Under the pieces are notes generated by a model. It was not told the DNA's origin. It was given only the letters and a program-made list of their open reading frames with translations, and ran no database searches. Positions 10,481 to 62,150 of a DNA stretch of 64,000 nt are shown here, in pieces; the stretch's first letter is position 1; each line of letters begins with the position of its first letter. Origin of the DNA: Candidatus Woesearchaeota archaeon (GTDB lineage Archaea; Nanobdellota; Nanobdellia; Woesearchaeales; JAHWIC01); contig JAHWIC010000001.1 in the NCBI GenBank assembly GCA_019322805.1, positions 67,347 through 131,346 on the forward strand. The letters run 5' to 3'. A program made the translations under genes and the position numbers.

Positions 10481-10596
10481 ATTCTGAAAATTCCTCTTAG
10501 AACTACTGTAAAGGAATTTTCATCTACTTCTAGTTCTTAAGAAACAGAATAAGACGATTTTTGCTTTATAGTAGACTTAAGGCAAAAATCAGATTT
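10481..10596 (+). repeat. Copy A of a four-member intergenic double-hairpin element family (TCTGAAAATTCC...GGAATTTTCATC ... GATTTTTGC...GGCAAAAATCAGATT)
   Basis: Direct alignment with the copies at 40756, 53037 and 61964. The shared terminal and internal inverted motifs are present. Confidence 0.6.
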
Positions 10597-10670
10597 ATTA
10601 TTTTTCTAATTATATTTTTTATTGATTAAAAACAAAAACTTAATAAAAAAGCAAAATATAGTGAAAAACC

Positions 10671-10973
10671 ATGACCCTTATATACATAACCTGCAAAGAC
10701 AAGGCAGAAGCCAAAAAGATAGCAAGCTACCTTCTAAAGAAGAAATTAATTGCATGCGCTAATTTCTTTCCTATAAACAGCATGTATTGGTGGAAAAATA
10801 AGATAGTTGATGATAAAGAGTTCTTATTATTAGCAAAAACAGCAAAAAAGAACTGCAGCAAGGTAAGAAAAGAAGTCAAAAAGCTGCACAGCTATGAGAT
10901 ACCATGCATTCTAGAGATTGATGTTGATGGAAACAAAGAATTTATAGATTGGGTAGATAGAGTTACTATGTGA
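10671..10973 (+). CDS. cutA: Divalent-cation tolerance protein CutA
   Basis: 100 aa. The CutA1 fold signature is present (KLIACANFFPINSMYWWKNKIV...HSYEIPCILE). Confidence 0.8.
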   Translation: MTLIYITCKDKAEAKKIASYLLKKKLIACANFFPINSMYWWKNKIVDDKEFLLLAKTAKKNCSKVRKEVKKLHSYEIPCILEIDVDGNKEFIDWVDRVTM

Positions 10974-11897
10974 TTACTGCTCACAAAGCTTTTCTATTTT
11001 CTGAAACTCTTCGTCTGTGTGCTTCTGGATCAAATCAAGAATGGGCTTATTCTCTGGCTTGAATAGATGCTTAAATCTGCCCTGAGGCTTGATAAAGTCA
11101 ACAACAGGTTTTGGTTTTGAAGGCTTATAGTTTAGCTTGTACTTGCCATTCTCTATCTCATACAAAGGCCAGAAGTTGCTTTCTACAGCTAATTTAGCAA
11201 TCTCAATTGTCTTATCTGATGGAAATCTCCATCCAAGAGTGCATGGCTGCAAACAAACAAGAACAGCAGGACCATCTGCTTTGAATGCTTTCTCAGCCTT
11301 CATCGAAAGATCCATTAAGTTTGAAACAGATGCCTGAGCAACATAAGGAATATTGTGGGCAGCAACTATTTTAACGATATCCTTCTTGAATTCTTCCTTG
11401 CCTGGATGTACTTTTCCAGCTGGAGTTGTTGTTGTAGCTGCACCATAGGGTGTTGCCGAGCTTCTTTGTATGCCTGTGTTCATATAAGCTTCATTATCAT
11501 AAAGAAGATAAACCATCTTGTGGCCGCGCTCTAAAGCACCAGAAAGACTTTGGAAACCAATATCATATGTTCCGCCATCACCACCTATAGCTAACACCTT
11601 AATGTTCTTATCGCATTTGCCTTTTTTTGCAAGCACTTTCTTAGCAGCTTCCATTCCTGCACCAGTTGATGCAGAGTTTTCAAAAGCAGAGTGAATAAAA
11701 GGGATATTCCATGAGGTAAATGGATAAATAGTTGTAGTAACTTCCCAGCAGCCAGTTGCGCAACATGCAACAACAGGGTCGTCTGTGCTAGCTAGGACTG
11801 TTCTTACTATCGGAGGAATTCCACAGCCAGAGCATGTTCTGTGGCCTGGGACTATCTTTCTATCCTGCAATTTTACTGCTAATTGCTTGAAGTTCAT
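10974..11897 (-). CDS. porB: Pyruvate/2-oxoacid:ferredoxin oxidoreductase beta subunit (TPP-binding)
   Basis: 307 aa. The Cys cluster CSGCG and the TPP motif GGDGG are present, and it is the last gene of a porGDAB-like operon. Confidence 0.85.
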   Translation of the reverse strand: MNFKQLAVKLQDRKIVPGHRTCSGCGIPPIVRTVLASTDDPVVACCATGCWEVTTTIYPFTSWNIPFIHSAFENSASTGAGMEAAKKVLAKKGKCDKNIKVLAIGGDGGTYDIGFQSLSGALERGHKMVYLLYDNEAYMNTGIQRSSATPYGAATTTTPAGKVHPGKEEFKKDIVKIVAAHNIPYVAQASVSNLMDLSMKAEKAFKADGPAVLVCLQPCTLGWRFPSDKTIEIAKLAVESNFWPLYEIENGKYKLNYKPSKPKPVVDFIKPQGRFKHLFKPENKPILDLIQKHTDEEFQKIEKLCEQ

Positions 11898-13078
11898 TCC
11901 CTAACACCTATATATCTAACATCAGCTGAAACATTTCCAGCTAATAAATCGTTAAACACAGCTTCGATCTCTGACTCATAAATGTTCCTTCCTCCCAAGC
12001 CAAACACACAGCTTTGTAGTTTTGGCCTTAAATTGAAATCATAAAGTGTATTCTTGATTTCTCCAAACACAGGGGCGTTTGCTCCAAAGCTTTCTGACCT
12101 GTCCAAGACAGCAATTGCTTTGGCATTCTTCAAAGCTTCACCAACGTCTTTATAGAAGAAAGGCCTAAATACTCTTATCTTCAATAATCCAACCTTTTTT
12201 CCTTCTTTACGCATTTTATCTATAACTGTCTTTGTTGTTCCTGCAGTTGAATTCATAGTGATGATAATGGCATCAGCATCATCTAGGTTATATTTTTCAA
12301 TAGGTTCGTATATGTTACCAGTTATCTTTGAAAGCTCTTTTCCAACTTTCAAGAATACTTCCTTAGCATTCTCCATAGCAGGTATTTGTTGTCTTTTTGT
12401 TTCAAAATAATAATCCTGCAGCTCTAAAGGACCCATTGTAACAGGATCTTTAATATTTAACAACCATTTCTCTGGTTTATGCTCACCAACAAATTTCTTG
12501 ACAACCTTATCATCATAGATTGTTGTATTTGCAACACCATGTGATGTAATAAATCCATCCTGGCAGACCATTACAGGAAGCATTACATCAGGATGCTCTC
12601 CAAGCCTTACTGCTAATAATGTGTTTTCATAAACCTCTTGGTTATTCTCTGAGTAAATCTGTATCCATCCATGATCTCTGCAACCCATCGAATCAGAATG
12701 ATCACAATGGATATTAATTGGTGATGATAATGCTCTGTTAACAATATTCATTATAATGGGTAATCTTGAGCCAGAAGCAACGCCTAGTATTTCCCACATC
12801 AAAGCCAAGCCTGCTGAGGCCGTTGCTGTCATTGCACGAGCGCCTGCTGCACTCGCTCCAACGCAAACAGACATTGCTGAATGCTCTGATTCAACCCTTA
12901 CTAATTCTGTATCAACAATACCATCAGCAACAAATTCAGAGAATTTCTGCATAATTGCAGTTTGAGGTGTAATAGGAAAAGCTCCAACAACATCTGGATT
13001 AATCTGACGCATAGCTTCAGCAGCAGCTGCTGTTCCAGTGATTGCCTTTACTGTTTTGCCTATCTTTTTGTTAGCCAT
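11894..13078 (-). CDS. porA: Pyruvate:ferredoxin oxidoreductase alpha subunit
   Basis: 394 aa. Typical POR alpha length and conservation; overlaps porB by 4 nt. Confidence 0.85.
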   Translation of the reverse strand: MANKKIGKTVKAITGTAAAAEAMRQINPDVVGAFPITPQTAIMQKFSEFVADGIVDTELVRVESEHSAMSVCVGASAAGARAMTATASAGLALMWEILGVASGSRLPIIMNIVNRALSSPINIHCDHSDSMGCRDHGWIQIYSENNQEVYENTLLAVRLGEHPDVMLPVMVCQDGFITSHGVANTTIYDDKVVKKFVGEHKPEKWLLNIKDPVTMGPLELQDYYFETKRQQIPAMENAKEVFLKVGKELSKITGNIYEPIEKYNLDDADAIIITMNSTAGTTKTVIDKMRKEGKKVGLLKIRVFRPFFYKDVGEALKNAKAIAVLDRSESFGANAPVFGEIKNTLYDFNLRPKLQSCVFGLGGRNIYESEIEAVFNDLLAGNVSADVRYIGVRE

Positions 13079-13079
13079 T

Positions 13080-13382
13080 TTACTTTGTGAATTCCGCTTC
13101 TTCTTTCATCTGTATGCATTTAACAGGGCAAATATTAGCGCAAATACCGCAGCCCTTGCAATAATCAAGGTCAATGCCCTTTCTTTTGATATTTTTTTCA
13201 TCTCCTTCTGCCTTAATGCAATGCTCAGGACAGAGGATAACGCACTGCATGCAGTGAATACATTTGGAATCATCAACAATCGGCCTAAAGCTCCTCCAGT
13301 CGCCTGTTTTAAAGTGTCTAGAACTGCCTGCTTCTGTAATCATTCCTCCTATTGGAATCTCTTTCCAGGTTTTTGGCTTCAT
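13080..13382 (-). CDS. porD: Pyruvate:ferredoxin oxidoreductase delta subunit (2x[4Fe-4S] ferredoxin)
   Basis: 100 aa with two CxxCxxCxxxCP motifs. Confidence 0.8.
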   Translation of the reverse strand: MKPKTWKEIPIGGMITEAGSSRHFKTGDWRSFRPIVDDSKCIHCMQCVILCPEHCIKAEGDEKNIKRKGIDLDYCKGCGICANICPVKCIQMKEEAEFTK

Positions 13383-13945
13383 TCTATCTTAACCTCATCA
13401 TGAGCTTTCTTAACAGCATCAATAGTTGCCTTAGTTTTTTCTTCACCAAGCTTCTTCAAGAATTTGTGCTTTATACTCTCTTCAATTGCATCTAAGGTGA
13501 TGCAGTTAGTAGCCTTAATCAAAGCACCAATCATTGGTGTATTGGGCAGATTCTTTCCAACTGCACCAATTGATATCTTAGTTGCATCTACAACTCCGAC
13601 CTTGCCCTTAAAACCTGTCTTTTCGCGAACATAAGCAATATCTTTATCAGTGTTGACAAGTAAAATGCTTCCTTCATGCAGTCCTTCTGCAACTGCAGGA
13701 CTGAGTAATGTAGGATCAATTACAAGAACAACATCAGGATTAACTACTGGAGAAACGCCTTTTATCTCTTTATCAGAAATCTTTGTGTAAGCCTTCATAG
13801 GAGCTCCTGCTCTTTCTGGGCCGTACTCTGGAAAAGCCTGTATGTGCTTTCCTTTACTCATTGCAGCTTCTGCTATAAATTGAGAAGCAGTCTTTGCTCC
13901 CTGGCCACCTCTTCCATGAATCCTTATCTCAAATACCTCTTTCAT
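13379..13945 (-). CDS. porG: Pyruvate:ferredoxin oxidoreductase gamma subunit
   Basis: 188 aa. It is the first gene of the operon, and EIRIHGRGGQGAKTASQ is typical of the POR/KOR gamma subunit. Confidence 0.8.
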   Translation of the reverse strand: MKEVFEIRIHGRGGQGAKTASQFIAEAAMSKGKHIQAFPEYGPERAGAPMKAYTKISDKEIKGVSPVVNPDVVLVIDPTLLSPAVAEGLHEGSILLVNTDKDIAYVREKTGFKGKVGVVDATKISIGAVGKNLPNTPMIGALIKATNCITLDAIEESIKHKFLKKLGEEKTKATIDAVKKAHDEVKIE

Positions 13946-14004
13946 CTGATAAAACCAGAAATTCTGCTATTTATATATTTTTCCTTATAGCGTTAAACAA
14001 AAAC

Positions 14005-14056
14005 TTTTAGAAAGCAAAGCTTTCTAAACCATTTAGGAAAGCTTCGCTTTCCAAAA
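14005..14056. promoter_or_regulatory. Two adjacent palindromes sharing a GAAAGC half-site (TTTAGAAAGC-AAA-GCTTTCTAAA and AGGAAAGC-TTC-GCTTTCC) in the divergent por / ABC1-kinase promoter region, just upstream of a TATA-like GTTTATATAAA
   Basis: Read directly. The palindromes are perfect, with centres about 27 bp apart, and the TATA box lies at 14057-14067. Confidence 0.4.
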
Positions 14057-14091
14057 AGTTTATATAAACCAGATAGAGTATTACTACTTAG

Positions 14092-15762
14092 ATGAATATT
14101 AAAAAAGAGGTAAGAGATATAAGGAGATTACAGGATATTCTATTAGTTCTAGTTGAAAGTGGATTTGGTTATCTAATAAGCAAGATCAAGCTTAGTAGCC
14201 TTGTTCCATTTGGAAAACGGGTAAAGGCTAAGTTGAAGCCAAAGAAGAAAATAACAAATCCTGAGAGACTTAGGCTGACTTTTGAAAAGCTGGGACCAAC
14301 TTTCATTAAGTTTGGCCAGTTATTGAGTCTAAGACCTGATTTATTGCCAAAAGAGTATATACGAGAGCTTGGAAAACTGCAGGATAGGGTACCTCCATTT
14401 AGTTCTACAGAAGCGAAAAAGATTGTTGAACATGAGTTAGGCCCTATAAGTAAGCCCTTCTCAAAGTTCGAACCTAAACCAGTTGCTTCTGCTTCTATCT
14501 CCCAGGTGCATAAAGCAGTTTTGAAGAATAAGAAAACAGTTGCTGTAAAGATACGAAGACCCGGAGTAAGAAGTATTATGGAAACTGATATTGAGATAAT
14601 GATGCAGATAGCAAAGCTGATAGAAAAATATATTCCAAGATTAAGAAGATACAATCCCATTGCAATTGTTAATGAATTCCATGAATGGACTAAGCGCGAG
14701 CTAGACTTAAGAAAGGAAGCAAGAAATGCGCAAAGGTTCTATAATAATTTCAAAGGAAGCAAGAGCGTCTATATACCCAAGGTATACAAAGAATTATGCA
14801 CTAAAAAGGTATTTGTTTCTGAATTCATAGAAGCTATTGAACTTCATGATGTTAAGGATGTTAAAAGAAAAGGGCTAAACCTCAGTAAGATTATAAAGAA
14901 TGGTTATATGGCTCTGCTAACCCAGGTGTTTGAACATGGTTTTTTCCATGCTGATCCTCATCCAGGAAATATCCTGATAATGAAAGACAACCGCATAGCC
15001 TTTGTTGATTATGGCATTGTTGGTTACTTTGACGATAAGTTAAAGGAAAAGTCTATTGATATCATATATGGCATTGTCAAAGACGAGCCTGAAAGGGTTG
15101 TAAGTGCCCTCTTAGAGCTTGGAAGTGTCGGAAAAGAAGGAGTAGACATTGATTCTTTTGAGAGAGAAGTACAAGATGCGATTGAAGAGCTGCAGGGAGC
15201 TAGTTTGAGTGATGTAAAATTAAGTTTGGTTTTAGAAGAAGTGCTGGATATTGCATTAAAATATCGTGTAAAAATGCCCCTGGACTTTATATTATTTGGA
15301 AAAACAATTGTTACTTTAGAAGGGGTAGCGTTGGAGTATGACCCTGAATTCAAGATCATTGACACAACAAAGCCCTTTGTTGAAAGATTAATGCTCAAGG
15401 AAAAGCCAAAGTACTTTGTAAAAGATTTGATTTCAAGAACAACAAAATTAAAGGACAGCATAGTTTCTTTCCCGACTCAGACATACAGTGTATTAAAAAA
15501 ACTGCAGAAAGGGACTATAAGGTTTGGTATCGAGGATAGAGAGATAAGAAGGCTGGGTGTTGAAATAGATAAGTCGAGCGACAGGCTTGTTTATGGAATA
15601 GTTATTGCTGCACTTATCATAGCATCAGCATGGACAGTTAACATACCTGGCGGCCCAAGGATATGGGATATTCACTTTTTACCATTTAGTTTTTTGGTCT
15701 TTGCGCTTATTGTAAGCATTTTGCTGCTTATTTCAATACATAAAGAAAAAGAAATTGAATGA
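14092..15762 (+). CDS. ABC1/UbiB family atypical kinase with C-terminal TM helices
   Basis: 556 aa. ABC1-kinase motifs are present (SISQVHKA, FHADPHPGNILI, VDYGIVG). Confidence 0.8.
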   Translation: MNIKKEVRDIRRLQDILLVLVESGFGYLISKIKLSSLVPFGKRVKAKLKPKKKITNPERLRLTFEKLGPTFIKFGQLLSLRPDLLPKEYIRELGKLQDRVPPFSSTEAKKIVEHELGPISKPFSKFEPKPVASASISQVHKAVLKNKKTVAVKIRRPGVRSIMETDIEIMMQIAKLIEKYIPRLRRYNPIAIVNEFHEWTKRELDLRKEARNAQRFYNNFKGSKSVYIPKVYKELCTKKVFVSEFIEAIELHDVKDVKRKGLNLSKIIKNGYMALLTQVFEHGFFHADPHPGNILIMKDNRIAFVDYGIVGYFDDKLKEKSIDIIYGIVKDEPERVVSALLELGSVGKEGVDIDSFEREVQDAIEELQGASLSDVKLSLVLEEVLDIALKYRVKMPLDFILFGKTIVTLEGVALEYDPEFKIIDTTKPFVERLMLKEKPKYFVKDLISRTTKLKDSIVSFPTQTYSVLKKLQKGTIRFGIEDREIRRLGVEIDKSSDRLVYGIVIAALIIASAWTVNIPGGPRIWDIHFLPFSFLVFALIVSILLLISIHKEKEIE

Positions 15763-15772
15763 GGTGAGATAT

Positions 15773-16072
15773 ATGAATAAGATAATAAGAAATGCAATTC
15801 TGCTTGGATTGGGAGCTGCAAGCTTAACAAAGGAAAAAGTAGAGAAGACAGTAAAGGGCTTTGTTAAAAAGGGTAAGATAAACACTAAAGAAGGCAAAGC
15901 CTTGGTAAGGGCTCTTTTAGGGCAAGCTAAGAAAGAGAAAGCCAGGGTAAGCTCTTTATTAAAGACAGAAGGAAAGAAGCTGGTTAAGGAAGCTGAAACA
16001 GTGACTAAAAACGAAGTTAAGATATTAAAAGCCAGAATAGCAAAGCTTGAGAAAAAGGTAAAGAAGAGATAA
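15773..16072 (+). CDS. Small Lys-rich coiled-coil protein (phasin-like)
   Basis: About 100 aa of K/E-rich predicted helix. It overlaps the ABC1 kinase stop and may be translationally coupled. Start chosen at MNKIIRN. Confidence 0.45.
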   Translation: MNKIIRNAILLGLGAASLTKEKVEKTVKGFVKKGKINTKEGKALVRALLGQAKKEKARVSSLLKTEGKKLVKEAETVTKNEVKILKARIAKLEKKVKKR

Positions 16073-16744
16073 CTATCTTATTATCGTTCCTTTAAACTTT
16101 TTTCCTTTCAATAATTTCTCTAAATTTTTTAAATTCTTTCCAATAATAGCAACACTTAATTTAGATTTTTCAGCTTCTTTTGAAGCAATTGGATCAAATG
16201 GCATGTTAAGCCCTGCTTTCCATTTGCTGCCAACAAGTTTTCTGAGCCCTTTCCAGGTTGTTTCTTTTATTGGCTTCGCATTTTTGCTTTTTTTAGGGTC
16301 TTTGTCATAAACATAATCCACATTTGTCATATTAACGATTATCTTTGCTCCGAGATTTTTAGCTAATAAAACAGCATCATAATCAGTGCTCCATCCTGGT
16401 TTCCATCCGCCTGCTATCAACGCCTTCTTCTTTGACCTGATTTTTTTTGTGGGATCAATAATAAAGCAGGTATCTGCAATATTTCCAAAGATATTAACCA
16501 TTAAATCAGCATTGAGCCATGTTGCGTGTGTTCCTAACCAGTCAAGCTGTGTTTGGCTTACTTTAGAAACAGATGAAGCAGCTTTTTGATAATCACGAGC
16601 AAGCTTTCCGCCTCCACAGTAAATACCAAACCTATAGCTTTTTTTGACAAACTTTTCAATAAGAGACTTGAATCCCTTCAAAAATTTGATATCTACTTTA
16701 TCCGGGACTATTATTGAGCCGCCAAGGGATATAACAATTGTTTT
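16073..16744 (-). CDS. pyrH: UMP kinase (amino-acid kinase family, archaeal type)
   Basis: About 224 aa. Motifs include SLGGS, GGGKLARDY, WLNADLM, AGGWKPGWSTDYDA and NVDYVYDKDP. Confidence 0.75.
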   Translation of the reverse strand, partial: KTIVISLGGSIIVPDKVDIKFLKGFKSLIEKFVKKSYRFGIYCGGGKLARDYQKAASSVSKVSQTQLDWLGTHATWLNADLMVNIFGNIADTCFIIDPTKKIRSKKKALIAGGWKPGWSTDYDAVLLAKNLGAKIIVNMTNVDYVYDKDPKKSKNAKPIKETTWKGLRKLVGSKWKAGLNMPFDPIASKEAEKSKLSVAIIGKNLKNLEKLLKGKKFKGTIIR

Positions 16745-16748
16745 CATT

Positions 16749-17108
16749 TTACGCACCAATGCCAATAAATGTAACACCCATTATTATTAGCAAAATTCCA
16801 AGCCATTTGTATTTATTCATCTTCTCCTTTAAAAACTTTATTGATAAAAACGAGACCCAGATATATGTTACTGAAACAAGGGGATATAGGATTGAGAGCT
16901 CTCCACCACGAAGTGCTGCTATAAATAAGATAGTTCCAAGAATATATAAGCTAGTTCCACTAGTAATATAGTGGTTTTTTATCAAGAGCCTTGGATTTAA
17001 GGAAAATTTCTTTGAGCCTTTTTTCAAGAGTATTGGTCCAAATGAGCCAACTATTGTGCCTAAAACAACAAGTCCTGCCGCCCATAGTTCTGTTGGCATC
17101 TTACGCAA
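16749..17108 (-). CDS. EamA/DMT-superfamily 4-TM half-transporter
   Basis: 119 aa with four hydrophobic helices, paired with the upstream homologue. Confidence 0.55.
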   Translation of the reverse strand: MRKMPTELWAAGLVVLGTIVGSFGPILLKKGSKKFSLNPRLLIKNHYITSGTSLYILGTILFIAALRGGELSILYPLVSVTYIWVSFLSIKFLKEKMNKYKWLGILLIIMGVTFIGIGA

Positions 17109-17484
17109 CCTCTGTATAGCTTATTCCGTCTTTTTTGCTTCCAACACTTACAAGAATTACACCTGCAATTATAATAAAAATTCCAATCCACTTATACGCA
17201 TTCATTAACTCCCCTAAAAAGAATATTGATAAGAGAGATACCCATACATAACTTGTAGCAATGATAGGATAAAGCACAGTGACATCACCATGTCTTAAAG
17301 CAATAATCATTATTATTCCTGCAATCACATATATGATAAGGCCTGTTATTATTTGATAGTTTGTTATTATTCCATACAAACTAACCACAAGCTTGTTTGC
17401 TCCAAACTTGTATAATATCTGGGCTATTGAAGTTAGAAAAGTGCAAAGAATAATTAAACCAAATGCAAACGGTTTTGTCCTCAT
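17101..17484 (-). CDS. EamA/DMT-superfamily 4-TM half-transporter
   Basis: 127 aa. Its motif YKWIGIFIIIAGV parallels the partner's YKWLGILLIIMGV. Confidence 0.55.
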   Translation of the reverse strand: MRTKPFAFGLIILCTFLTSIAQILYKFGANKLVVSLYGIITNYQIITGLIIYVIAGIIMIIALRHGDVTVLYPIIATSYVWVSLLSIFFLGELMNAYKWIGIFIIIAGVILVSVGSKKDGISYTEVA

Positions 17485-17488
17485 TTTT

Positions 17489-20255: not shown

Positions 20256-20296
20256 TATTGAGAATAAGTGACTTTGGTTTATTTATTAATCTTATG

Positions 20297-22009: not shown

Positions 22010-22180
22010 CATAGCCACCAACCCCTAAAACAATTGTAGAATTAATGATCTGCAAACTTTCTGTTAGCTGCATTATACAAGTAGTTGACTTTTCATATAT
22101 AAAACTTTCTACAACGGGGGTTGTTGATTCTACACAACATTTAAATATTCGTTCTAGGATTTGTTCTGTAGGGGTTACCA

Positions 22181-23695: not shown

Positions 23696-23699
23696 ATTT

Positions 23700-24266: not shown

Positions 24267-24326
24267 ACAGATATAAACAAAAACTTTATATTTAAGCTTT
24301 ACTAACTATGGTTTAGGGGTGGAACT

Positions 24327-24476: not shown

Positions 24477-24504
24477 TTTTCTTCTGTAGAAAGGGGCGTA
24501 AGTA

Positions 24505-40755: not shown

Positions 40756-40885
40756 AATCTGAAAATTCCTTTCAACCGCATGTAATCTGAATTTTCATCC
40801 ACATAATTCCCTTTTAGCTAGAGTATAAAGGAACAACAGCGGATGATTTTTGCCTTAGCCAAAGGAATAAAGCAAAAATCAGATT
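40756..40885 (+). repeat. Copy B of the intergenic double-hairpin element family
   Basis: It begins AATCTGAAAATTCC, continues through TGAATTTTCATCC and CCCTTTTAGCTAGAGTATAAAGGAA, then GGATGATTTTTGCC, and ends AGCAAAAATCAGATT. It is followed by an A/T-rich TTTTATTGATT flank. Confidence 0.6.
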
Positions 40886-40973
40886 GATTTTTATTTTTTA
40901 TTGATTATTTTTTATTGATTTTAGACTCAATAAACAATAATATTTATTAATCGAGGAATAAAACCAAGTAACT

Positions 40974-48027: not shown

Positions 48028-48028
48028 T

Positions 48029-49708: not shown

Positions 49709-49709
49709 C

Positions 49710-50249: not shown

Positions 50250-50261
50250 GGTGGCGATAGT

Positions 50262-50993: not shown

Positions 50994-51149
50994 ACAAAAA
51001 AAATAAGAAACAGGGGTATATAAAGGTTTATTATTTACTGCTGATACTACTTTAAAATAGTATCAAAACCGAAACATTTAAATATAAGTTCTACTTTATA
51101 ATAGTAACACGAAAGGGTGGTGAGATTTACGCCTTTTTTTCAATATTGA

Positions 51150-51310
51150 ACCATAACAAGGTTTTACAATCAAGCTAAACACCTCTTTTCCCCGTTAATG
51201 CCCCACAAGGGCGTTTTCGGGGTTTTACAATCAAAATAAGCTCATAATCACCTCTTTTTCCCTGGTGAGGGTTTCGCAAGAGACTCTCGCTGGGGTTTTA
51301 TAATCACTAA
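51150..51310 (+). repeat. About 70-bp degenerate tandem repeat (x2.5) with units ending GGGGTTTTA(C/T)AATCA(A/C), each containing GC-rich hairpins
   Basis: Read directly. GGTTTTACAATCAA starts at about 51151 and 51223, and GGTTTTATAATCAC at about 51293. CACCTCTTTT(T)CCC recurs at 51179 and 51249. Confidence 0.4.
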
Positions 51311-51730
51311 TTATAATCAATAGGTTATTCTCTATAAAATAGCCACAAAACCAAATGTTTTTATACTTGGATACCCTAATGATATTGTTATGCATTGATT
51401 GCGTAACGAAGCCCGTCACGAGAGTACTCAATGGAGCTGACGGCAATGCCAAGCAATGAGCTTGGGGGTTAGTGTTTCGGGCTACAATCCATTAAATGAC
51501 GATTAAAACATAAATAGAGCAAGCATTAAGCGTTTCATCATTATTATTCATTGATTTGACCTTTAAATTGGAAACAAAAAGCAATTTGACCTATGTTGGT
51601 CAAAAAAGCTAAATAGATTTAGGAGCTTGTTCTATTTGTGATGTGGGGAGAAGCTAATGATCATCAATTCATTTATTGTAGTGAGATGTAGTTCAGCTTC
51701 TTCTTAGACTAATGTTCCGGAGGGATTAAA

Positions 51731-53005: not shown

Positions 53006-53036
53006 TTTTTTCTTTAATTTTTATTTTTAAAAAATA

Positions 53037-53166
53037 AATCTGAAAATTCCTTCCACAACCACTGGAAGGGAATTTTCATCTGCTTTCTTCCCTTTAAGCT
53101 AGAGTATAAAGGAAGTACAGAAGATGATTTTTGCTTTCAGTGGGGAATAAAGCAAAAATCGGATTT
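53037..53166 (+). repeat. Copy C of the intergenic double-hairpin element family
   Basis: It begins AATCTGAAAATTCC, and hairpin 1 is extended (CCTTCCAC/ACTGGAAGG). It continues through GGAATTTTCATC, CCCTTTAAGCTAGAGTATAAAGGAA and GATGATTTTTGC, and ends AGCAAAAATCGGATT. Confidence 0.6.
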
Positions 53167-53219
53167 ATTATTTCTTTAATTGATTTTTTTAAATTGATTT
53201 AAGGCGAAAATAACTTTTT

Positions 53220-54584: not shown

Positions 54585-55626
54585 TCAGCCTGTTTATTAT
54601 TAAATCGAATTCTGATTGTTCCTTTATAAGGTCATTCTCATCAAAGTAACCTGCTCCTGTCCTAACGTATTTACAGCCAAAAATAAATGCTGGCACTTCT
54701 AATGATGGATTAATTTTTTTGAATATTGCTACCTCTGATTTTGGTATTGAACCTTCCTTTTCACCAGTTAGTTTATTATCTCCTGTATCAAGCTCCCAGC
54801 TGTATGCGATTATGTCTTTGTTAGATACATATGGTTCTACTGTTGATATAAATATTTCCTCAACCCAGGCACATTGCTCGCATCTTGATGTTGTAAACAA
54901 TCTGATAATTGGTTTGCCGTCTTCTTTACATACCTCTTCATCAGTTATTTTAAATGTATCTACTCCAAAGAATATCTCTACATCTGATTCACTTTTTAAT
55001 TCTTCAACATAATCAAGGAATGCTTCCTCTTGTTTTTGGGATAAAAGCATCATTTCAATCTGGTCCCGGACTTCTTCCAGCGAAAGTCCGCTGTCTTTTG
55101 CTCCAGATTCCTCATAATAATCCCTTATCTCTTTTTCTTTAACTTCAATGTCGCTTAGTGCAGTTTCATTTAGCAGATTTAATATAATTAATTGGGTTTT
55201 ATAGTATTCCCTTAATTCAGCCCGGCTTATGCCTTGCTGCTTAAGTCTTGATTCGAATTCTTTCTCAGTCATCCCGCTTTGGGTGATGACTGTGTTTATA
55301 ATACCATCTACCTCTTCATCAGTCACTGTAATTTGTTTTTTTGATGCTTCTTGAAGCAGCAATTTCTCGTTTATTTTCTGGTCTAGAATATCATTTTTGG
55401 TTATTATGCCTTGATAGGTAGGTGGAAGTTGGGCATAAAGCTCTTCTATCTCTGAGTAAGTTATGACCTCACCATTGACTACTGCAGCTATCTTGCTGCT
55501 TTCCTGGAATTTATCAAATAAAGTATAAATAAGCGCAATGAGAATTACCAACCCAAGAATCAGCCCGATATAAACCTTAACCTTGCTCTTCTGTTTCTTT
55601 GACTTTTTTTTCACCAAACTTGCCAC
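54574..55626 (-). CDS. Signal-anchored extracytoplasmic protein with a SurA-N-like chaperone region and a thioredoxin-like CxxC (CEQC) domain
   Basis: 350 aa with an N-terminal TM. It overlaps the downstream gene by 11 nt. Confidence 0.45.
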   Translation of the reverse strand: MASLVKKKSKKQKSKVKVYIGLILGLVILIALIYTLFDKFQESSKIAAVVNGEVITYSEIEELYAQLPPTYQGIITKNDILDQKINEKLLLQEASKKQITVTDEEVDGIINTVITQSGMTEKEFESRLKQQGISRAELREYYKTQLIILNLLNETALSDIEVKEKEIRDYYEESGAKDSGLSLEEVRDQIEMMLLSQKQEEAFLDYVEELKSESDVEIFFGVDTFKITDEEVCKEDGKPIIRLFTTSRCEQCAWVEEIFISTVEPYVSNKDIIAYSWELDTGDNKLTGEKEGSIPKSEVAIFKKINPSLEVPAFIFGCKYVRTGAGYFDENDLIKEQSEFDLIINRLIAE

Positions 55627-55739
55627 CCTTTAGATTTACTCCTCTGGAAGAGAAAAAATATACCAATAGATAAATCTTTCTAATTTTATTCACTACCGAA
55701 TGGTTTCTATAAAGGTTTATATGAAATTCGAGTAAGTTT

Positions 55740-57080
55740 GTGTATATGGCTTATGATATTGTTATTGGAAGGAGTGAAGCTGATAGAAAGAAGATTGGAA
55801 CTCTTGGGGCAATCTTTCTTGGCAAACATTATGTACAGATGGGGCAGACTGTTAGTTTATCAAGTAAGATATTTATGGACCTAACTGGAAGCCATGCTGT
55901 CTTTCTTTGCGGCAAAAGAGGTTCCGGCAAGTCATACACAATGGGGGTCATAGCAGAAGGAATGGCTGATTTGCCTTCTGAGATTAAGAATAATATCTCT
56001 GTTATAATGCTTGACACAATGGGCATTTACTGGACAATGAAGTATCCTAACCAGAAGCCTAAGGAGCAGGAATTGTTAAGGCAGTGGGGTCTTGAGTCAA
56101 AAGGGCTTAATATTACGATTTTTACGCCCAAAGGTTATTTCAAGGCTTACAAAGACAAGGGAATTCCCACAGATTTTCCATTCTCAATTAAAACAAGTGA
56201 GCTTGATGTAAGTGACTGGTGTATTACTTTTGGAACCAAGCAAAACGAGCCAATGGGTGTGTTAATCGAAAGAACTATTGAAACCCTGAAGGAACAAGGA
56301 AAGAGCTATGGAATTAAGGATATGATCGCTACTTTGCATAAGGATGAGCGCACAAAGCAGGAGGTTAAGGATGCTTTGGAGAACAGACTGCTTGGCGCTG
56401 ATAAATGGGGTTTATTTGATAAAGAAGGTACACCTCTTAATGATTTAGTTATTGGCGGACAAGTTACTGTTTTGGATGTAAGCTGCTATGCTACAATGCC
56501 TGGCGCTGGAAATTTAAGGGCCTTGGTTATTGGCCTTGTAGCAGAGAAACTGTTTATACAGAGGATGTTAGCAAGAAAAGAGGAGGAATTTGCCTCAGTC
56601 GAGAGGACAATACATTATGCTGAAGAAGAGGAAGAAGGCAAAGAAAAAAAGAAAGAGCCTCTTGTTTGGCTTGTTGTAGATGAAGCTCATGAGTTTCTGC
56701 CGCGTGAAGGGGAGACAGCTGCTTCAAGACCCTTGATTATTATCCTAAGAGAAGGCAGACAGCCTGGAATTTCGTTGATTCTAGCAACACAACAGCCGGG
56801 TAAAATCCATACTGATGTTATGACACAATCGGATATAATGATATCACATAGACTAACAGCCCAGGTTGATGTAGAAGCCCTAGGAATGTTGATGCAGAGT
56901 TATATGCGTGGTGGTTTGGACAAAGAGATTAATGCGTTGCCAAGATTAAAGGGCTCTGCCTTGATATTTGATGATAATAATGAAAAATTATATCCGATGA
57001 GAGTTCGTCCTAGATTTACATGGCACGGCGGTGAGTCAGCTTCTGCATTAGTAGAGAAAAAGAAGGTCTTTGAGTTCTAA
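55740..57080 (+). CDS. P-loop ATPase of the HerA/FtsK (DUF87/AAA-like) superfamily
   Basis: 446 aa. Walker A (GKRGSGKS), Walker B (LVVDEAHEF) and the C-terminal motif ILATQQPGKI are present. Confidence 0.6.
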   Translation: MYMAYDIVIGRSEADRKKIGTLGAIFLGKHYVQMGQTVSLSSKIFMDLTGSHAVFLCGKRGSGKSYTMGVIAEGMADLPSEIKNNISVIMLDTMGIYWTMKYPNQKPKEQELLRQWGLESKGLNITIFTPKGYFKAYKDKGIPTDFPFSIKTSELDVSDWCITFGTKQNEPMGVLIERTIETLKEQGKSYGIKDMIATLHKDERTKQEVKDALENRLLGADKWGLFDKEGTPLNDLVIGGQVTVLDVSCYATMPGAGNLRALVIGLVAEKLFIQRMLARKEEEFASVERTIHYAEEEEEGKEKKKEPLVWLVVDEAHEFLPREGETAASRPLIIILREGRQPGISLILATQQPGKIHTDVMTQSDIMISHRLTAQVDVEALGMLMQSYMRGGLDKEINALPRLKGSALIFDDNNEKLYPMRVRPRFTWHGGESASALVEKKKVFEF

Positions 57081-57095
57081 CAAACTCTGACCCGT

Positions 57096-57114
57096 CAAAA
57101 ATCTGCGATTTTTG
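57096..57114. terminator. Palindrome CAAAAATC-TGC-GATTTTTG at the convergent gene junction, with T-tracts on both strands
   Basis: Read directly. It is closely related to the palindrome at 189-213. Confidence 0.35.
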
Positions 57115-57140
57115 AAGTCTTTGAATTATAAAAGAAAAAA

Positions 57141-57353
57141 TTATCTCCTTATTTCTAACTGCCCTTCTGCTGGTGCATAAGTCATTGATATCAATGAAGC
57201 TACAAACATCAATATAAAGAACAGCACAAAAGTAAAGCCCCATGTTGAATTCCTAGGATAAACATATACTATTGATATCAAAAAACCAACAATTGCTGTA
57301 AGCATAAATCCGCTGGATAAAGGAACTACATTTATTTCTTTTTTCTTTGCCAT
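57141..57353 (-). CDS. Small two-TM membrane protein (70 aa)
   Basis: ORF with two hydrophobic helices. No family recognised. Confidence 0.35.
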   Translation of the reverse strand: MAKKKEINVVPLSSGFMLTAIVGFLISIVYVYPRNSTWGFTFVLFFILMFVASLISMTYAPAEGQLEIRR

Positions 57354-57390
57354 AATATCACCGCTTTTTTAAGTTAAATTAATCTTAGAG

Positions 57391-58479
57391 CTATTTAAAC
57401 TTTACGAAATTTAAGCTGTCAACTTTCATTCTTGCTTCAGCTGTTTTCCTTTCAAAGTCATTCATGAATTTTGTCATTAACTCGCAAGCATGCTTTTTAT
57501 CATCGCCGCAGGTTAGTTTTCCTGCTTTGCATTCATCATAGATTTTCTTTAATTCCTTATCGTCTTCTATCAAATGCTGCTTGTATAACTCAAATATCAT
57601 GCATTTCTCCGGTTCACCGCCTAGCTTTTTTTGTTCTTCGACAGTGTCCCTGCCGCCTGTTTTTGCTCGCATCAGTTTTTTAGCTACTTTTTTTGGGTCT
57701 TCTGGCAAGTCAATGCAGCTTTCAGGTTTTGACTTTGACATCTTTAATGAGCCATCCAAGCTAGGAGTGAATTTATGATAAAGGCCGGCAGGCAAAAAGA
57801 ATTTTTTGTCTTTCATCCTTCTGGCGGCATCTCTTGTAAGCCTTATATGCGGGTCCTGGTCAACACCAACTGGGATTACACCAGGCATTTGCTCCTCTAA
57901 TTGAGGATATAGAATATCTCCGATCTGTGTTAAAGCAGAAACAATCCTTGAAGGGTCTGCCAGGCCGTAAACAGCCCTGAACTCATTTAAGGTTATTCTG
58001 TTTGAAGCTTCATAAGCTAATTTTATCACATCCTTGTTTTCTGATTGGAAATAGAAAATTGTTTTCTTAGGGTCCAATCCTAAGGCTAAGTAAGATGGAA
58101 TCTGGAATTCCAAAGCATTCTTCCTTGCTTCCTTTAAACTTACCCCCCTAGCAGCTGCTGATTCTAAATCAGCTACTAAACAAAATGTCTTTGCGCCTTG
58201 TTTCTGGAAATAAGCAATATTTTCAACAACCATCTTTGTTCCAAAATGTACTTTTTGTGCTGTAGGCATTATTCCTGATAGAACATAGAATTTCTTTTTT
58301 TCTTTCATTGCTTTAAGAACAGGTTTCATGTCACGTTCTGCGAAAATGACTCCGCGACGCATTAATCTGTTTGGAGCAGGATAATTGTCAGGGTTAAAAC
58401 TATCTAAACCAAAATCCTTGATTATTTTTGTATAATCCTCTACCAGTTCTGAGCCGTATGGGTCAATTATTTTTGTCAT
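57391..58479 (-). CDS. trpS: Tryptophan--tRNA ligase (archaeal/eukaryotic type)
   Basis: 362 aa. The class I motifs are present (HIGH-like region, GVDQDPHIRLTRD, KMSKS). Confidence 0.85.
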   Translation of the reverse strand: MTKIIDPYGSELVEDYTKIIKDFGLDSFNPDNYPAPNRLMRRGVIFAERDMKPVLKAMKEKKKFYVLSGIMPTAQKVHFGTKMVVENIAYFQKQGAKTFCLVADLESAAARGVSLKEARKNALEFQIPSYLALGLDPKKTIFYFQSENKDVIKLAYEASNRITLNEFRAVYGLADPSRIVSALTQIGDILYPQLEEQMPGVIPVGVDQDPHIRLTRDAARRMKDKKFFLPAGLYHKFTPSLDGSLKMSKSKPESCIDLPEDPKKVAKKLMRAKTGGRDTVEEQKKLGGEPEKCMIFELYKQHLIEDDKELKKIYDECKAGKLTCGDDKKHACELMTKFMNDFERKTAEARMKVDSLNFVKFK

Positions 58480-59279
58480 TTTGTAGCGTTTTTCATTAAC
58501 TTAATATAATTTTCAATCTTCTTTAGCATGATTCTTTTATTTTTCAGATTCTTTTCAATTATTTTTACAACTGCACTTCCAACAATTGCTCCATCAGCTC
58601 CTGCTTTTAGAAGAGCCTTAATATGCTCTGGTTTTTTTATTCCAAAACCAACGCATAATGGCAACTTTGTTTTTGGCCTTATTCTCTTTAGTAATTTTAA
58701 AGTGCTTGTTTCTAATTTTTCTCTTGCTCCTGTTACACCTAATCTTGAAACAACATAAACAAATCCTTTTGTTTTGCTAGCAATTTTCTTTAACCTTTTA
58801 TTATCAGTTAATGGGCTTACAATAAATATTGTATCGACCTTTGCTTTTCTTGCTGCTTTTATGTACGGGTCTGCTTCTTCTATTGGCAAATCAGCAACTA
58901 AAACAGAATCAACGCCTGCATTAGCTGCGTCTTTGTAAAACTTATCAATTCCTCGTTGATAAATCAGGTTAGTGTAAGTTAAAAGTCCAATCGGAATTTT
59001 GTCATTAATTTTTCTTATTTGTTTTGCAAAATTGAAATTTCTATCTGTATTAACCCCTGCTTTTAATGCCCTAACACCAGCTGTTTGTATTGTTGGGCCA
59101 TCTGCAATGGGCTCTGAAAAAGTGAATCCTAATTCAAGTATATCTGCGCCAGCATTGATTATTGTTTTAATTATTTCTAAGCTTAACTTATAGTTTGGAT
59201 CTCCAGCTACTACAAACGGAACTAATGCCTTTTCCTTATTTTTCTTTAGTTTCTTGAATGTTTTTTTGTATCTGCTCAT
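58476..59279 (-). CDS. trpA: Tryptophan synthase alpha chain
   Basis: 267 aa. The TrpA signature [18 protein letters not shown] is present. Confidence 0.85.
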
Positions 59280-60487
59280 ATCTTAACTCCCATCTCTTTT
59301 GCGGCATGAACAACATCCTTATCTCCTCTGCCAGATAAATTAACAATCACTAATTTGTTCTTAAAGCGTTTAGCATTCTTTACTAAATAAGCAACAGCAT
59401 GTGCTGATTCTAAAGCTGGAATAATGCCTTCTTCATCACTTAATAATTTGAAAGCATCAAGGCACTCCTGGTTTGTTGCATATGAGTACTCTGCTCTTTT
59501 TAATTCCCTGAGATGTGTGTGCTCAGGACCAACTGCGCAATAATCCAAGCCTGCTGATACTGAATGGGTGTTGTATATCTGGCCGTATTTATCCTGCAAA
59601 ACATAAGTGAATGTACCGTGAATTACTCCGGGTCTTCCTATCTTTTTATCTGCAAACCTTGCTGCATGCCTTCCGGATGTAATTCCTGTTCCGCCTGCTT
59701 CTACTCCAATTAATGTTACTTTTTTGTCTTTAAGGAAAGCTTTGAATATTCCAAGCGCATTACTTCCACCGCCAACACAAGCGATAATTGCATCTGGCAG
59801 CTTGCCCTCTACTGCAAGTATTTGTTTTTTTGCTTCTTTTCCTATTACTGACTGGAAATGTGCTACCATGCTTGGATAAGGGTGAGGTCCTAAAACACTT
59901 CCAAGCAGATAATGTGTTGTTTCAACACTTGAAGTCCAGTCACGCAAAGCCTGATTAATTGCATCCTTTAGTGTTTTTGAGCCTGTTGTAACAGGAATAA
60001 CCTTTGCTCCAAGCAGCTTCATCCTGAAAACATTAAGCTTTTGACGCTCAATATCAACAGTACCCATGTAAATATCGCGCTCTAAACCAAGTTTTGCAGC
60101 TGCTGTTGCAACAGCAACTCCATGCTGGCCAGCTCCTGTTTCTGCTATAATCCTTGTCTTTCCCATGTATTTTGCAAGTAAAGCCTGGCCAAGTGCATTG
60201 TTTATCTTATGAGCACCTGTATGAGCCAGGTCTTCTCTTTTTAGATAGATTTTACAGCCAAGTTTTTTGCTTAATCTTGGGCAATAAGTCAAAGGTGTTG
60301 GTCTTCCAACGTAATTCTTGAACAAGTCATTAAGCTCTTTATTGAATTTTTTATTATTCCTGTATCTATTAAAAGCTGCTTGCAACTCTTTTACAGCTGG
60401 CATCAATGTTTCTGGAACAAAAACACCGCCGTACTTCCCAAATCTTCCTTTTTTCATTTCAAATTCTCCGAATTTGTAATGCACCAA
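59276..60487 (-). CDS. trpB: Tryptophan synthase beta chain
   Basis: 403 aa. The PLP lysine region ([13 protein letters not shown]) and GRFGKYGG are present. Confidence 0.9.
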
Positions 60488-60502
60488 AAATGCGAAGCAT
60501 TT

Positions 60503-61150
60503 TTAAGTGCATTTTTTTGCTCTTTGAATGAATTTTTCAAGCTTGATTGGATCTTTCTTCCCTGGTTTTGCTTTTACTCCGCTATTTGTATCAACTGCAA
60601 ATGGCTCTACTTTTTCAATTGCAATCCCAACATTCGTCGGAGTCAAACCACCGGCTAAAAATACCTTGCATTTTACTGATTTAACTATTTTTCTGCTAAT
60701 CTCCCAGTTATGAACTACCCCTGTTCCGCCGAGTTTGCCTTTTGCTTTTGTATCGAGCAAGATATAATCAACATATTTCCCGTATTTTTTAGCTTGCTCT
60801 ATTGCTGATTCATCTTCCACATGAATTGTTTTTGTGAGCTTTGTCTTTGGAAGTGCTTTTCTTATTTTTCCAATGACCTTTAAGTCAACCTTTGGATTAT
60901 GAAGCTGAATTATCTCTGGTTTTATCTCCTTTGCAAGCTCGATTATCTCTTTTGCCTTGTCTAAGTAAGTCACTAAAACTGATCGTGACTCTAAAGGCAG
61001 CCTTTTTATGAGCTTTTTTGCCTCTTCTCTTGTGATTGAATCTTCTGAAAAATCAACCTCTACTATGAAACCCAAAAAATCTGCACCAAGCTCAGCTGCT
61101 CTGAATGCATCATGCTCATTTGTGTTTCCGCAGATCTTTACTTTAGTCAT
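60503..61150 (-). CDS. trpF: Phosphoribosylanthranilate isomerase
   Basis: 215 aa. The (beta/alpha)8 TrpF motifs KICGNT and FLAGGLTPTNV are present. Confidence 0.8.
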   Translation of the reverse strand: MTKVKICGNTNEHDAFRAAELGADFLGFIVEVDFSEDSITREEAKKLIKRLPLESRSVLVTYLDKAKEIIELAKEIKPEIIQLHNPKVDLKVIGKIRKALPKTKLTKTIHVEDESAIEQAKKYGKYVDYILLDTKAKGKLGGTGVVHNWEISRKIVKSVKCKVFLAGGLTPTNVGIAIEKVEPFAVDTNSGVKAKPGKKDPIKLEKFIQRAKKCT

Positions 61151-61790
61151 TTGCAGCTTCTCTTAATTTTTTTATTGTTCCTACACGGTCTTCTTTGCCA
61201 AATATTGCACTTCCTGCAACAAAAACATTTGCGCCTGCTTTTGCTGCTTTTCCTATTGTCTCTTCATTAATTCCTCCATCAATCTCTATGTCAAGCTCTG
61301 GCTTTAATTTTCTCAGTTCTTCTACCTTAGGCAACACATCTGGAATAAACTTCTGTCCTGGATAGCCAGGGTTTACTGACATAATCAAAACCATACCGAC
61401 ATCATCAATATATTGCTTTATTTTATCCAAGGGTGTTGGAGGATTTATTGAAATTCCTACTTTGATTCCCTTGCTTCTTATTAATTCAAAGGCTTCTTTT
61501 ATATCATCCTTGCATTCCTCATGTATTGTTATTATTTTAGCACCAGCATCTGCATAATCTTCTATAAATCCGTCTTTAATAGGATGTTTAACCATTAAAT
61601 GGACATCTTTTGGAAGCTTTGAGCTTACTGCTTTGATCTCTTCTGCCTTGAATGTCTTTGGAGGAACAAACTTTCCGTCCATTATATCAACGTGTATTAA
61701 ATCTGCAACTGGCTCTATTTCATTCACTTCTTCCTGCAATTTTTCTTTTTTTGCAGATAATATTGATGGTGCGATTTTTATTTTTGGCAT
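61143..61790 (-). CDS. rpe: Ribulose-phosphate 3-epimerase
   Basis: 215 aa. The motif IAPSILSA...HVDIMDGKFVP is present. It overlaps trpF by 8 nt. Confidence 0.85.
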   Translation of the reverse strand: MPKIKIAPSILSAKKEKLQEEVNEIEPVADLIHVDIMDGKFVPPKTFKAEEIKAVSSKLPKDVHLMVKHPIKDGFIEDYADAGAKIITIHEECKDDIKEAFELIRSKGIKVGISINPPTPLDKIKQYIDDVGMVLIMSVNPGYPGQKFIPDVLPKVEELRKLKPELDIEIDGGINEETIGKAAKAGANVFVAGSAIFGKEDRVGTIKKLREAAND

Positions 61791-61963
61791 TTTATTATCA
61801 ATTTATTTTATCACTAGGTTTATGATACGCATGCACAATTAGTTGTGCATTTGCTTGTTTTTATTACCTTAAATCATCATTTAATAACAATTATTCAACG
61901 AAAAATGCTGACGCATTTTTCTAGTGTAGTAAATTATTTTATAATTTATACACAATCCGAAAA

Positions 61964-62150
61964 TTCCTTTCACAACCAAGTTAAAGGTTATAGTAAGCGA
62001 AATTATATAAGCAATAGTTTCGCTTACTAAATAGTAAACGCAATCTTTCATAAAATAGTTGCGTTTACTAAATTTTCATCCGCTTTCTTTCCTTTAGCAA
62101 TGACTGTGGATGATTTTTGCCTTAACGTGGGTATCAAGCAAAAATCAGAT
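61964..62150 (+). repeat. Copy D of the intergenic double-hairpin element family, carrying a roughly 75-bp insertion of two perfect hairpins; it sits between trpC and rpe
   Basis: It begins AATCCGAAAATTCC. The insertion holds TAGTAAGCGAAA/TTTCGCTTACTA at 61991-62029 and AGTAAACGCAA/TTGCGTTTACT at 62033-62069. It continues through AATTTTCATCC and GGATGATTTTTGCC and ends AGCAAAAATCAGATT. Confidence 0.6.

Follow-up and report, generated by a model that had tools for sequence, protein, structure and literature searches.

Four intergenic segments in a 64,000-nucleotide stretch of a Candidatus Woesearchaeota archaeon genome (GenBank assembly GCA_019322805.1, contig JAHWIC010000001.1, forward-strand positions 67,347 to 131,346) share the same ordered series of short motifs, which raises the question of whether they are mobile DNA, genes for structured RNAs, or sites read by a protein. 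This whole stretch is referred to here as the window, and all coordinates are positions within it. The best reading is that the four sequences represent a new family of short, non-coding, quasi-palindromic repeats of a familiar kind. Judged from sequence comparisons, the family is probably a non-autonomous mobile repeat resembling a miniature inverted-repeat transposable element (MITE), with stems that remain under constraint after insertion and a structured core and T-runs that would be tolerated or used. The unusual trait, and the most intriguing feature of the family, is that in so compact an archaeal genome the stems are still conserved long after a copy has inserted.

The four copies described in an earlier, sequence-only reading of the window are all present, with their motifs in the order described (alignment A1), and a search of the window with a profile built from the family matches exactly these four sites (E = 4e-17 to 4e-27). 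The motif AGCAAAAATCRGATT, allowing up to 2 mismatches, is found 6 times against 1.16 expected, a number reached in 0 of 100 shuffles. The cores occupy 10481..10595 (copy A, 115 bp), 40756..40885 (copy B, 130 bp), 53037..53165 (copy C, 129 bp), and 61954..62151 (copy D, 198 bp including a nested insert); these coordinates refine the earlier ones, which placed the start of copy D 10 nt late, as its 5' AATCCGA begins at 61954. The observation that the copies share one orientation and are intergenic is true within the window, where A, B, C, and D all lie on the + strand between open reading frames (ORFs). The chance of a common strand for four copies is about 1 in 8, however, and orientation bias was rejected as a family trait, since copies in opposite orientations are found within 4 kb of each other at L036 and L108 (L-numbers denote related loci compared with the window, ~0.6 Mb in all).

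The anatomy of the element was drawn from an alignment of 31 simple copies (alignment A2) and later from 79 copies. The core measures 115-130 bp (110-131 bp across copies), reaching up to ~200 bp with nested modules, and, whether in single-stranded DNA, in RNA, or in an extruded cruciform, can pair as a four-way junction with zero unpaired junction bases. Its parts are a 7-bp outer stem (AATCTGA/TCAGATT), an arm H1 (AAATTCC(TTT)/(AAA)GGAATTT, with a 12-nt loop), an inner stem (TCATC(Y..)/(..R)GATGA) closing a central hairpin of several interchangeable types, and an arm H2 (TTTTTGC(YTT)/(AAR)GCAAAAA, with a loop of 11-12 nt). A GA/TC step at the junction is common to all four arms, so that two base pairs can migrate between arms, and RNAalifold lengthens H1 and H2 by these migrating pairs. 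The copies fold better than shuffled sequence both as RNA (z = -2.3 to -5.8) and as DNA (z = -2.4 to -9.1). The view of each copy as two related hairpins in inverted orientation is wrong, because AATCTGA and TCATCC are strands of the outer and inner junction stems, and the H1 (AAATTCC) and H2 (TTTTTGC) stems differ in all copies.

Terminal inverted repeats are nevertheless present, in the form of the AATCTGA/TCAGATT stem, which continues into an A-run at one end and a T-run at the other. Relative to the core, positions -10 to -1 are rich in A (consensus AAAAAWTA), a TATTTTTTTT-like sequence fills positions +1 to +12, and a second T-run lies at +21 to +25, which gives T-runs on both strands (the left flank reads TAATTTTTT as its reverse complement, and the right flank TATTTTTTTT). 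The A/T-rich flank of the TTATTGATT type noted previously is real: the right side, and often also the left in inverted form, carries 0-4 outward-facing units composed of a T-run and WATTGAT. In the window these units are almost confined to the spacers that hold an element, and WATTGAT was rejected as a general intergenic signal for this reason. The number of units differs between orthologs, and two units already exist at one empty site; their source may be the element flank, the target, or a remnant. The true termini of the element are uncertain because these flank units vary.

Comparison with relatives provides the filled and empty sites expected of mobile DNA. Site C is empty in four relatives with DnaG proteins 85-91% identical, in which the distance from the DnaG stop to the convergent downstream gene is 22-58 nt versus 214 nt in the window, and the extra DNA consists of the element plus its flanks. 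The filled/empty alignments place the whole inserted block on the + strand at approximately 53031..53219, comprising an A-run, the core, a right flank with two AATTGATT units, and a distal tail; its borders are uncertain by a few bases owing to the low complexity of the A/T flanks. Site D is empty in L109, L110, and L111, where the trpC stop codon overlaps the start of rpe (TAATG), and the TrpC proteins of the relatives empty at this site are 78% and 71% identical. In the window, copy D shares the 438-nt trpC-rpe spacer with two accessory modules and additional hairpins, and on these alignments the entire spacer is an insertion into an operon junction, the insertion being the derived state because a precise deletion recreating the start/stop overlap is implausible. 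Five further filled/empty pairs were found (L011/L095, L054/L011, L074/L026, L077/L020, and L087/L031), with the insertion falling within an ATGA overlap in L077/L020 and between a GGAGGT Shine-Dalgarno sequence and its ATG in L087/L031. A truncated half copy without H2 is present in L111.

The other two sites have a different history. Site A, in the Nop56-CutA spacer, is filled in every relative examined (YT1_182 (L045), L046, L047, and L048), and an organism without copies C and D is still filled there. Site B, in the CorA-RLI spacer, is filled in YT1_182 (L021) by a copy that is identical at 68 of 70 stem positions and has a different central module; a 20-kb stretch is collinear between the window and YT1_182 (79.7% identical), and each has a single copy in it. 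Because relatives are filled at A and B and empty at C and D, copies A and B are old, shared insertions, and copies C and D recent ones.

The search for more copies and for empty sites in relatives, suggested along with the sequence-only reading, has thus yielded both, and the family extends well beyond the window. An exact H2 pattern, scanned over one genome per species (185,579 species), matched 27 loci in a single metagenome-assembled genome (Woesearchaeota YT1_182) and one locus in CP070655.1, while six further matches were obvious chance sites in bacteria. Looser matching around these loci gave 34 distinct copies, and YT1_182 carries at least 31. An exact H1 pattern matched 60 loci in metagenomes from a small number of sediment data sets, adding 49 distinct copies and bringing the total recovered to about 85, none of which contains an ORF. 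These counts are lower bounds, since exact patterns miss variant copies (e.g., the YT1_182 ortholog of copy A, which has GAGTTTTGC/GCAAAACTC). As far as sampled, the family is confined to one clade of Woesearchaeota (DPANN archaea). A search of IMG/VR with the H1 pattern returned 0 matches, and a viral origin was rejected on this result.

All 34 of the first-round copies are intergenic, and all four classes of neighbouring-gene orientation are occupied (12, 7, 7, and 6 copies). Many copies lie 20-60 nt after stop codons, 6 of 32 are located between divergent gene starts, and neighbouring gene starts come down to 20-40 nt from the left end of the element. Three YT1_182 copies are found 33-100 nt from tRNA genes for Ile, Thr, and Pro (L018:3477-3572, L005:3847-3919, and L026:1629-1704, respectively), which is too few for an association. 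A typical family copy is also carried by L022, which corresponds to CP070655.1, a 1.14-Mb sequence named 'Candidatus Omnitrophota bacterium bin81 chromosome'. This locus is syntenic (78-84% identity) with L067, a metagenome contig of the same clade, and encodes an RtcB of archaeal type next to the copy; the naming of CP070655.1 as bacterial may be a taxonomic mis-assignment.

Comparison of ten orthologous copy pairs demonstrates that the parts of the element evolve at different rates after insertion. Stems are identical at 623 of 690 positions (90%), loops at 146 of 239 (61%), and central modules at 189 of 303 (62%). For reference, four-fold degenerate sites of the flanking genes are identical at 464 of 784 positions (59%) between the window genome and YT1_182, and at 54-66% in eight other orthologous locus pairs. 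On these values the loops and the central module drift at the neutral rate, and the stems are clearly under constraint. Since orthologous loops are as dissimilar as neutral sites (~60%) and scarcely closer than the loops of unrelated paralogs (58% identical), they cannot be guide sequences, and a guide or antisense role was rejected. Pairs that have kept locus-specific loops (site B, L012/L103, and L045/L047) have stems 93-97% identical, and conversion from another copy is unlikely in these pairs because the locus-specific loops were kept. Different loop or central types at the same site (window copy A versus L045, L009/L100, and L019/L068) indicate exchange between copies or re-occupation of the site.

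The conservation of the stems is a matter of sequence as well as of pairing. On the four-way structure 92% of cells hold standard pairs, most pairs are invariant, and among the 79 copies real covariation is restricted to four pairs: an H2 pair (78/109; T-A in 68 copies, G-C in 8, and intermediates in 3), an inner pair (45/72; U-A in 28 and C-G in 21), an H1 pair (11/36; T-A to A-T), and an outer pair (5/112). Pairing is maintained, yet the stems are conserved as sequence. The proposal that selection acts on structure rather than on primary sequence goes further than this result allows, given near-invariant stems, 3-4 covarying pairs, and an RNAalifold covariation term of -0.11 kcal/mol; the extended H1 pairing described for copy C (CCTTCCA/TGGAAGG) is real. 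Mismatches that would be G·U pairs are distributed without bias between the strands of the 79 copies (58 on + versus 67 on -), so that no single transcribed strand is indicated. No promoter motif at a fixed distance was found upstream of the core on the + strand, and on the - strand there is an ambiguous A/T-run 21-25 nt upstream of the core.

The suggestion of a MITE-like mobile element with terminal inverted repeats is borne out, since the family is multi-copy and intergenic, has outer repeats, and is missing from sites C and D in relatives. The comparisons show copies arriving at new sites such as operon junctions, being nested with other hairpin modules, and decaying or becoming truncated. 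Under such a mechanism, the unit would be moved in trans by an enzyme that reads the invariant stems or the termini. Inserted copies would persist, with the core and the T-runs in both directions being tolerated or used as intergenic punctuation. A possible role is that of a bidirectional terminator-like or transcript-stabilising structure, or of a protein-binding site; the former fits because T-runs are present in both directions and many copies lie shortly past stop codons.

Several observations weigh against a MITE. An autonomous partner or transposase was not found in the 64-kb window or in the ~0.6 Mb of related loci, and the multi-copy ORFs near copies are CBS-domain paralogs only, with no transposase among them. 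Candidate target-site duplications differ in length, with TTTTTAA bracketing the block on both sides at site C, a TTRATRAAATAA-like repeat of 12-19 bp at site D, and at most 1-2 bp duplicated in L077/L020; they run from ~1 to ~19 bp, and the true length is blurred by the A/T-richness of the flanks and by 15-25% divergence. The variable positions cluster in the loops and are not scattered over the whole element, a pattern known from functional structured RNAs. Old copies have kept 90% of their stem positions. Such conservation is foreign to a purely selfish, inactive MITE and suggests a function in situ, or else gene conversion or homogenisation between copies. It is conceivable, if somewhat unlikely, that the four-way-junction core is more than mobile DNA and is a functional module under purifying selection at each Woesearchaeota locus, perhaps spreading without a classical transposase, and acting either as an undescribed structured RNA or as a structure-specific protein-binding or recombination site with a GGATGATTTTT landing pad for hairpin modules and gene cassettes.

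More specific alternatives to a MITE-like repeat share part of this evidence. The copies could be independently transcribed small RNA (sRNA) genes, duplicated in the genome, each producing a ~120-nt cloverleaf-like RNA from its own promoter with an oligo-T terminator, the stems serving as the functional core or as a protein-binding platform. The strong constraint on stems and freedom of loops at orthologous loci, the compensatory changes that preserve pairs, the T-runs after the core, and the A/T-run of the - strand at roughly the spot of an archaeal TATA box are all compatible with such genes, as are the placement of accessory modules at junctions, helix feet, or ends and not in loops, in the manner of RNA expansion segments, and the resemblance of the CUGA and GAUGA junction words to the core of a k-turn (box D / box C). 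This explanation is unlikely, however, given the even G·U-compatible mismatches on the two strands, the lack of a fixed-distance motif upstream on the + strand, flank units that vary even between orthologs, and gene starts so close to the left end. Neutral loops leave no guides, and insertion into operon junctions and Shine-Dalgarno/ATG gaps is the behaviour of mobile DNA. Rfam also provides no match: the whole window gave 0 matches at gathering scores, and permissive E-value searches with copies B and C reached 19-23 bits at best against cut-offs of 63-80, in agreement with the earlier statement that no matching known family could be named. Archaeal box C/D sRNAs have the order C (RUGAUGA)-guide-D'-C'-guide-D (CUGA), are ~50-70 nt long, and carry guides complementary to rRNA or tRNA. 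A box C/D sRNA was rejected since CUGA is 5' and GAUGA mid-element on both strands, both lie within Watson-Crick stems, and the variable segments are neutral. Readings of the CUGA/GAUGA words as a hammerhead or as a bulge-helix-bulge (BHB) motif were discarded because the arrangement is unfit, and a scan of the window with ARAGORN detects neither tRNA nor tmRNA. Loop-to-loop pairing (a long hairpin or kissing loops) appears in the minimum free energy folds of A and C, is absent from most copies and from the ortholog of A, and was likewise set aside.

A mobile alternative with a different mechanism is an IS200/IS605-type single-stranded DNA hairpin element, similar to palindrome-associated transposable elements (PATEs) or to REPINs (paired repetitive extragenic palindromic (REP) sequences), in which a Y1 HUH transposase (TnpA/RAYT) reads H1 and H2 as ends and moves the element by peel-and-paste at replication. 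Two hairpins with invariant stems and free loops, at least one nested module inserted without detectable duplication (L046 versus the window), an accessory module flush with TCAGATT at either end that suggests sequence-specific targeting, and the single strand common to all four window copies are in keeping with this mechanism. It is nonetheless improbable, as the main element is terminally inverted-symmetric, unlike IS200/IS605 ends, its insertions have no constant tetra- or pentanucleotide on the 5' side, H1 and H2, read along one strand, are two different sequences rather than a single REP repeated in inverse orientation, and opposite orientations occur at short range; moreover, no Y1/TnpB gene was seen in the ~0.6 Mb of related loci, in a search that was not exhaustive. 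Finally, the element could be a DNA-level binding or cruciform site for a host protein with a function in chromosome organisation, as an insulator or terminator, or as a recombination hotspot, with the duplex stems being read and the spread of copies being secondary. Stems conserved in sequence beyond pairing and the absence of strand asymmetry would agree with such a site, as would the shared GA/TC step, which permits 2-bp branch migration as in a Holliday junction, and the repeated secondary insertions at GGATGATTTTT. This is very unlikely as a full account, however, because it has no candidate protein to read it, the compensatory changes demonstrate a role of intrastrand pairing beyond duplex sequence, and the gain of copies at new loci is left unexplained by it alone.

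Known elements resemble the MITE-like family in some properties and differ in others. Archaeal MITEs (e.g., the Sulfolobus SM-type, Halobacterium, and Haloquadratum elements) are deletion derivatives of identifiable insertion sequence (IS) elements with matching terminal inverted repeats; the Woesearchaeota family is probably non-autonomous as well, and a parent IS was not found for it in the window or the ~0.6 Mb of related loci. A REPIN consists of two inverted copies of one ~25-bp REP, and REP stems are conserved because a protein reads them (REPIN/RAYT, IS608). REP/REPIN-RAYT systems and IS200/IS605 PATEs are similar to the present family in being hairpin-based extragenic repeats with paired hairpins per unit and conserved stems. 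Unlike in REPINs, H1 and H2 differ and are joined in a four-way junction, with the shared words forming the outer and inner stems, and a general ORF comparison of the related loci found no RAYT/TnpA among multi-copy or copy-adjacent ORFs. PATEs derived from IS200/IS605 lack terminal inverted repeats and insert, with no duplication, on the 3' side of a fixed tetra- or pentanucleotide, whereas the Woesearchaeota element is terminally symmetric and its insertion sites have no fixed 5' word. Archaeal termination is thought to need mainly oligo-T, and the element shares with intrinsic bidirectional terminators a stable structure followed by T-runs on both strands; unlike terminators, it is also found between divergent gene starts (the 6 of 32 copies noted above), where none is needed.

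The closest counterparts are bacterial. Correia/CREE (Neisseria), ERIC/IRU (enterobacteria), and RUP/BOX/SPRITE (Streptococcus pneumoniae) repeats are ~100-200 bp, non-coding, multi-copy, intergenic, and terminally inverted, and have strong folds. They show insertion polymorphism between strains, mutual nesting, and, in BOX, a modular composition, with effects as promoters, terminators, and RNase targets (PMC10969869); nested clusters of the small repeats BOX, RUP, and SPRITE, and terminator and promoter roles of MITEs, are established in bacteria (PMC10969869). The Woesearchaeota family matches Correia, ERIC, BOX, RUP, and SPRITE in size, copy behaviour, nesting, and modularity. Unlike them, it occurs in a DPANN archaeon, forms not a simple long hairpin but a four-way junction whose stems are invariant and whose loops are neutral, lacks a TA or other clear target-site duplication, has no known partner IS, and is constrained in its old copies. 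In an automated census, one Woesearchaeal genome is among the most MITE-dense archaea, with 105 per Mb (PMC11602168), which is comparable in order of magnitude to the window's 4 copies in 64 kb, the two being compared by density alone.

The individual copies in the window differ in their flanks and in the modules added to the core. Copy A has the order outer stem (ATTCTGA/TCAGATT), H1, inner stem with a short GTTCTTAAGAAAC central hairpin, and H2. Its left flank (10451..10480, + strand) contains inverted units ATCAATAG and ATTCAAT followed by the A-run AAAAAATA, and a 25-nt block of units left of the copy is missing in the YT1_182 ortholog, so that unit number varies between orthologs. The right flank (10596..10627, + strand) consists of a T-run and an ATTGATT unit, and right-flank units at this site number 1 in L047 and 3 in L045. 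Copy B is characterised by the long central hairpin module CCCTTTTAGCTAGAGTATAAAGG and by a right flank (40886..40920, + strand) with T-runs and two TTATTGATT units. Copy C takes the four-way-junction fold as RNA or as single-stranded DNA (z = -6.1 for the DNA fold). The genes flanking the copies (aNOP56, RLI, archaeal DnaG, and CutA) are of archaeal types, and close homologues of the window's DnaG are attributed to Candidatus Woesearchaeota. The window falls within a 261-kb JGI metagenome contig.

Copy D is the most elaborate. A nested two-hairpin insert of ~83 nt (61988..62070, + strand) splits the 3' strand of H1 between AAAGG and AATTTTC; its hairpins, TAGTAAGCGAAA..TTTCGCTTACTA and TAGTAAACGCAA..TTGCGTTTACTA, are similar and in tandem (TAGTAARCGMAA..loop..TTKCGYTTACTA), and the insert is found at the same position in the non-syntenic loci L025 (L025:2479-2678) and L107 (near 2965-3113). 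Directly abutting TCAGATT is a 45-nt, two-hairpin accessory module (62152..62196, + strand; GTTGCCGAGTGAAACGAGCGCAAC TAAGGAATCTCTGATTCC TGT), which has six occurrences (window copy D, L029, L032, L075, L085, and L095), always flush with a TCAGATT end, and which in L032 is inverted at the opposite end of the element. This placement suggests end-specific targeting. The right flank that follows (62197..62228, + strand) has a T-run and two TATTGAT units reaching the trpC stop codon (62229-62231). On the other side, from copy D to the start of rpe, the spacer contains additional DNA (61791..61953, + strand) that relatives lack, with the hairpins GTGTA..TACAC, AAAATGC-GTCA-GCATTTT (terminator-like), and ATGCACAA-CTA-TTGTGCAT. 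A small hairpin from this spacer, GCACAAYTARTTGTGC / (T)GCACAAYTARTTGTGCA, recurs beside family copies at the unrelated loci L018 and L054.

Related loci contain further insertions into the element. A third two-hairpin module of ~80-88 nt (TGTCRGAAA...TTTCTGARCACG...AAAAACC..GGTTTT) occupies two fixed positions in the H2 arm, namely GGATG^ATTTTTGC in L031, L049, and L064, and GCAAA^AATCAG in L046 (L046:1149-1236) and L092/L101; L046 and window copy A form a clean filled/empty pair for this module, with zero target duplication. As to whether nested modules might be BHB introns, the L031 and L046 junctions lack the canonical 3-4-3 motif by eye, no dedicated search having been made. In L027 (L027:4268-5255) an 850-bp segment with a 13-bp direct repeat (GCAGATGATTTTT) at its two ends interrupts a family copy at GATGATTTTT; the segment encodes a 176-aa ORF, which has 0 matches in Pfam, NCBIfam, and PDB. 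Immediately beside this segment lies a 1.7-kb gene for a 526-aa protein with a UVR motif, and at the same site the relative L057 (L057:4795-4930) has the intact element alone. The GGATGATTTTT position is a repeated site of secondary insertions, including this gene-bearing segment, and family copies may mark hotspots of gene gain.

A separate feature of the window is a 737-nt non-coding region (50994-51730) between the RIO1 kinase gene and dnaG, which has 84% mean column identity among relatives, far above that of coding DNA, and includes a virtually invariant block of more than 100 nt in the vicinity of 51410-51495. It contains two tandem strong hairpins, each with CACCTCTTTT(T)CCC ahead of it and GGGGTTTTAYAATCA behind it, and the + strand folds better (z = -5.5). 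No Rfam match was obtained for this region even at E = 1. The stretch probably encodes at least one unannotated structured RNA, or else is origin-like.

The genomes of DPANN archaea are very small and gene-dense, with few recognised mobile elements. At ~60 copies per Mb, located in operon junctions and in Shine-Dalgarno/ATG spacers, the family must shape the separation and expression of transcription units. It is also a practical marker, offering strain-level insertion polymorphisms in a lineage known solely from metagenomes. With stems of old copies kept at 90% against ~60% for neutral sites, the family is a testable candidate for a co-opted regulatory structure, or for an undescribed RNA- or protein-recognition motif, in an uncultured group of archaea. 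If it is only a MITE, it would be one more routine entry among such repeats and a caution for annotation, in that a structured repeat should not be taken for an sRNA gene by default.

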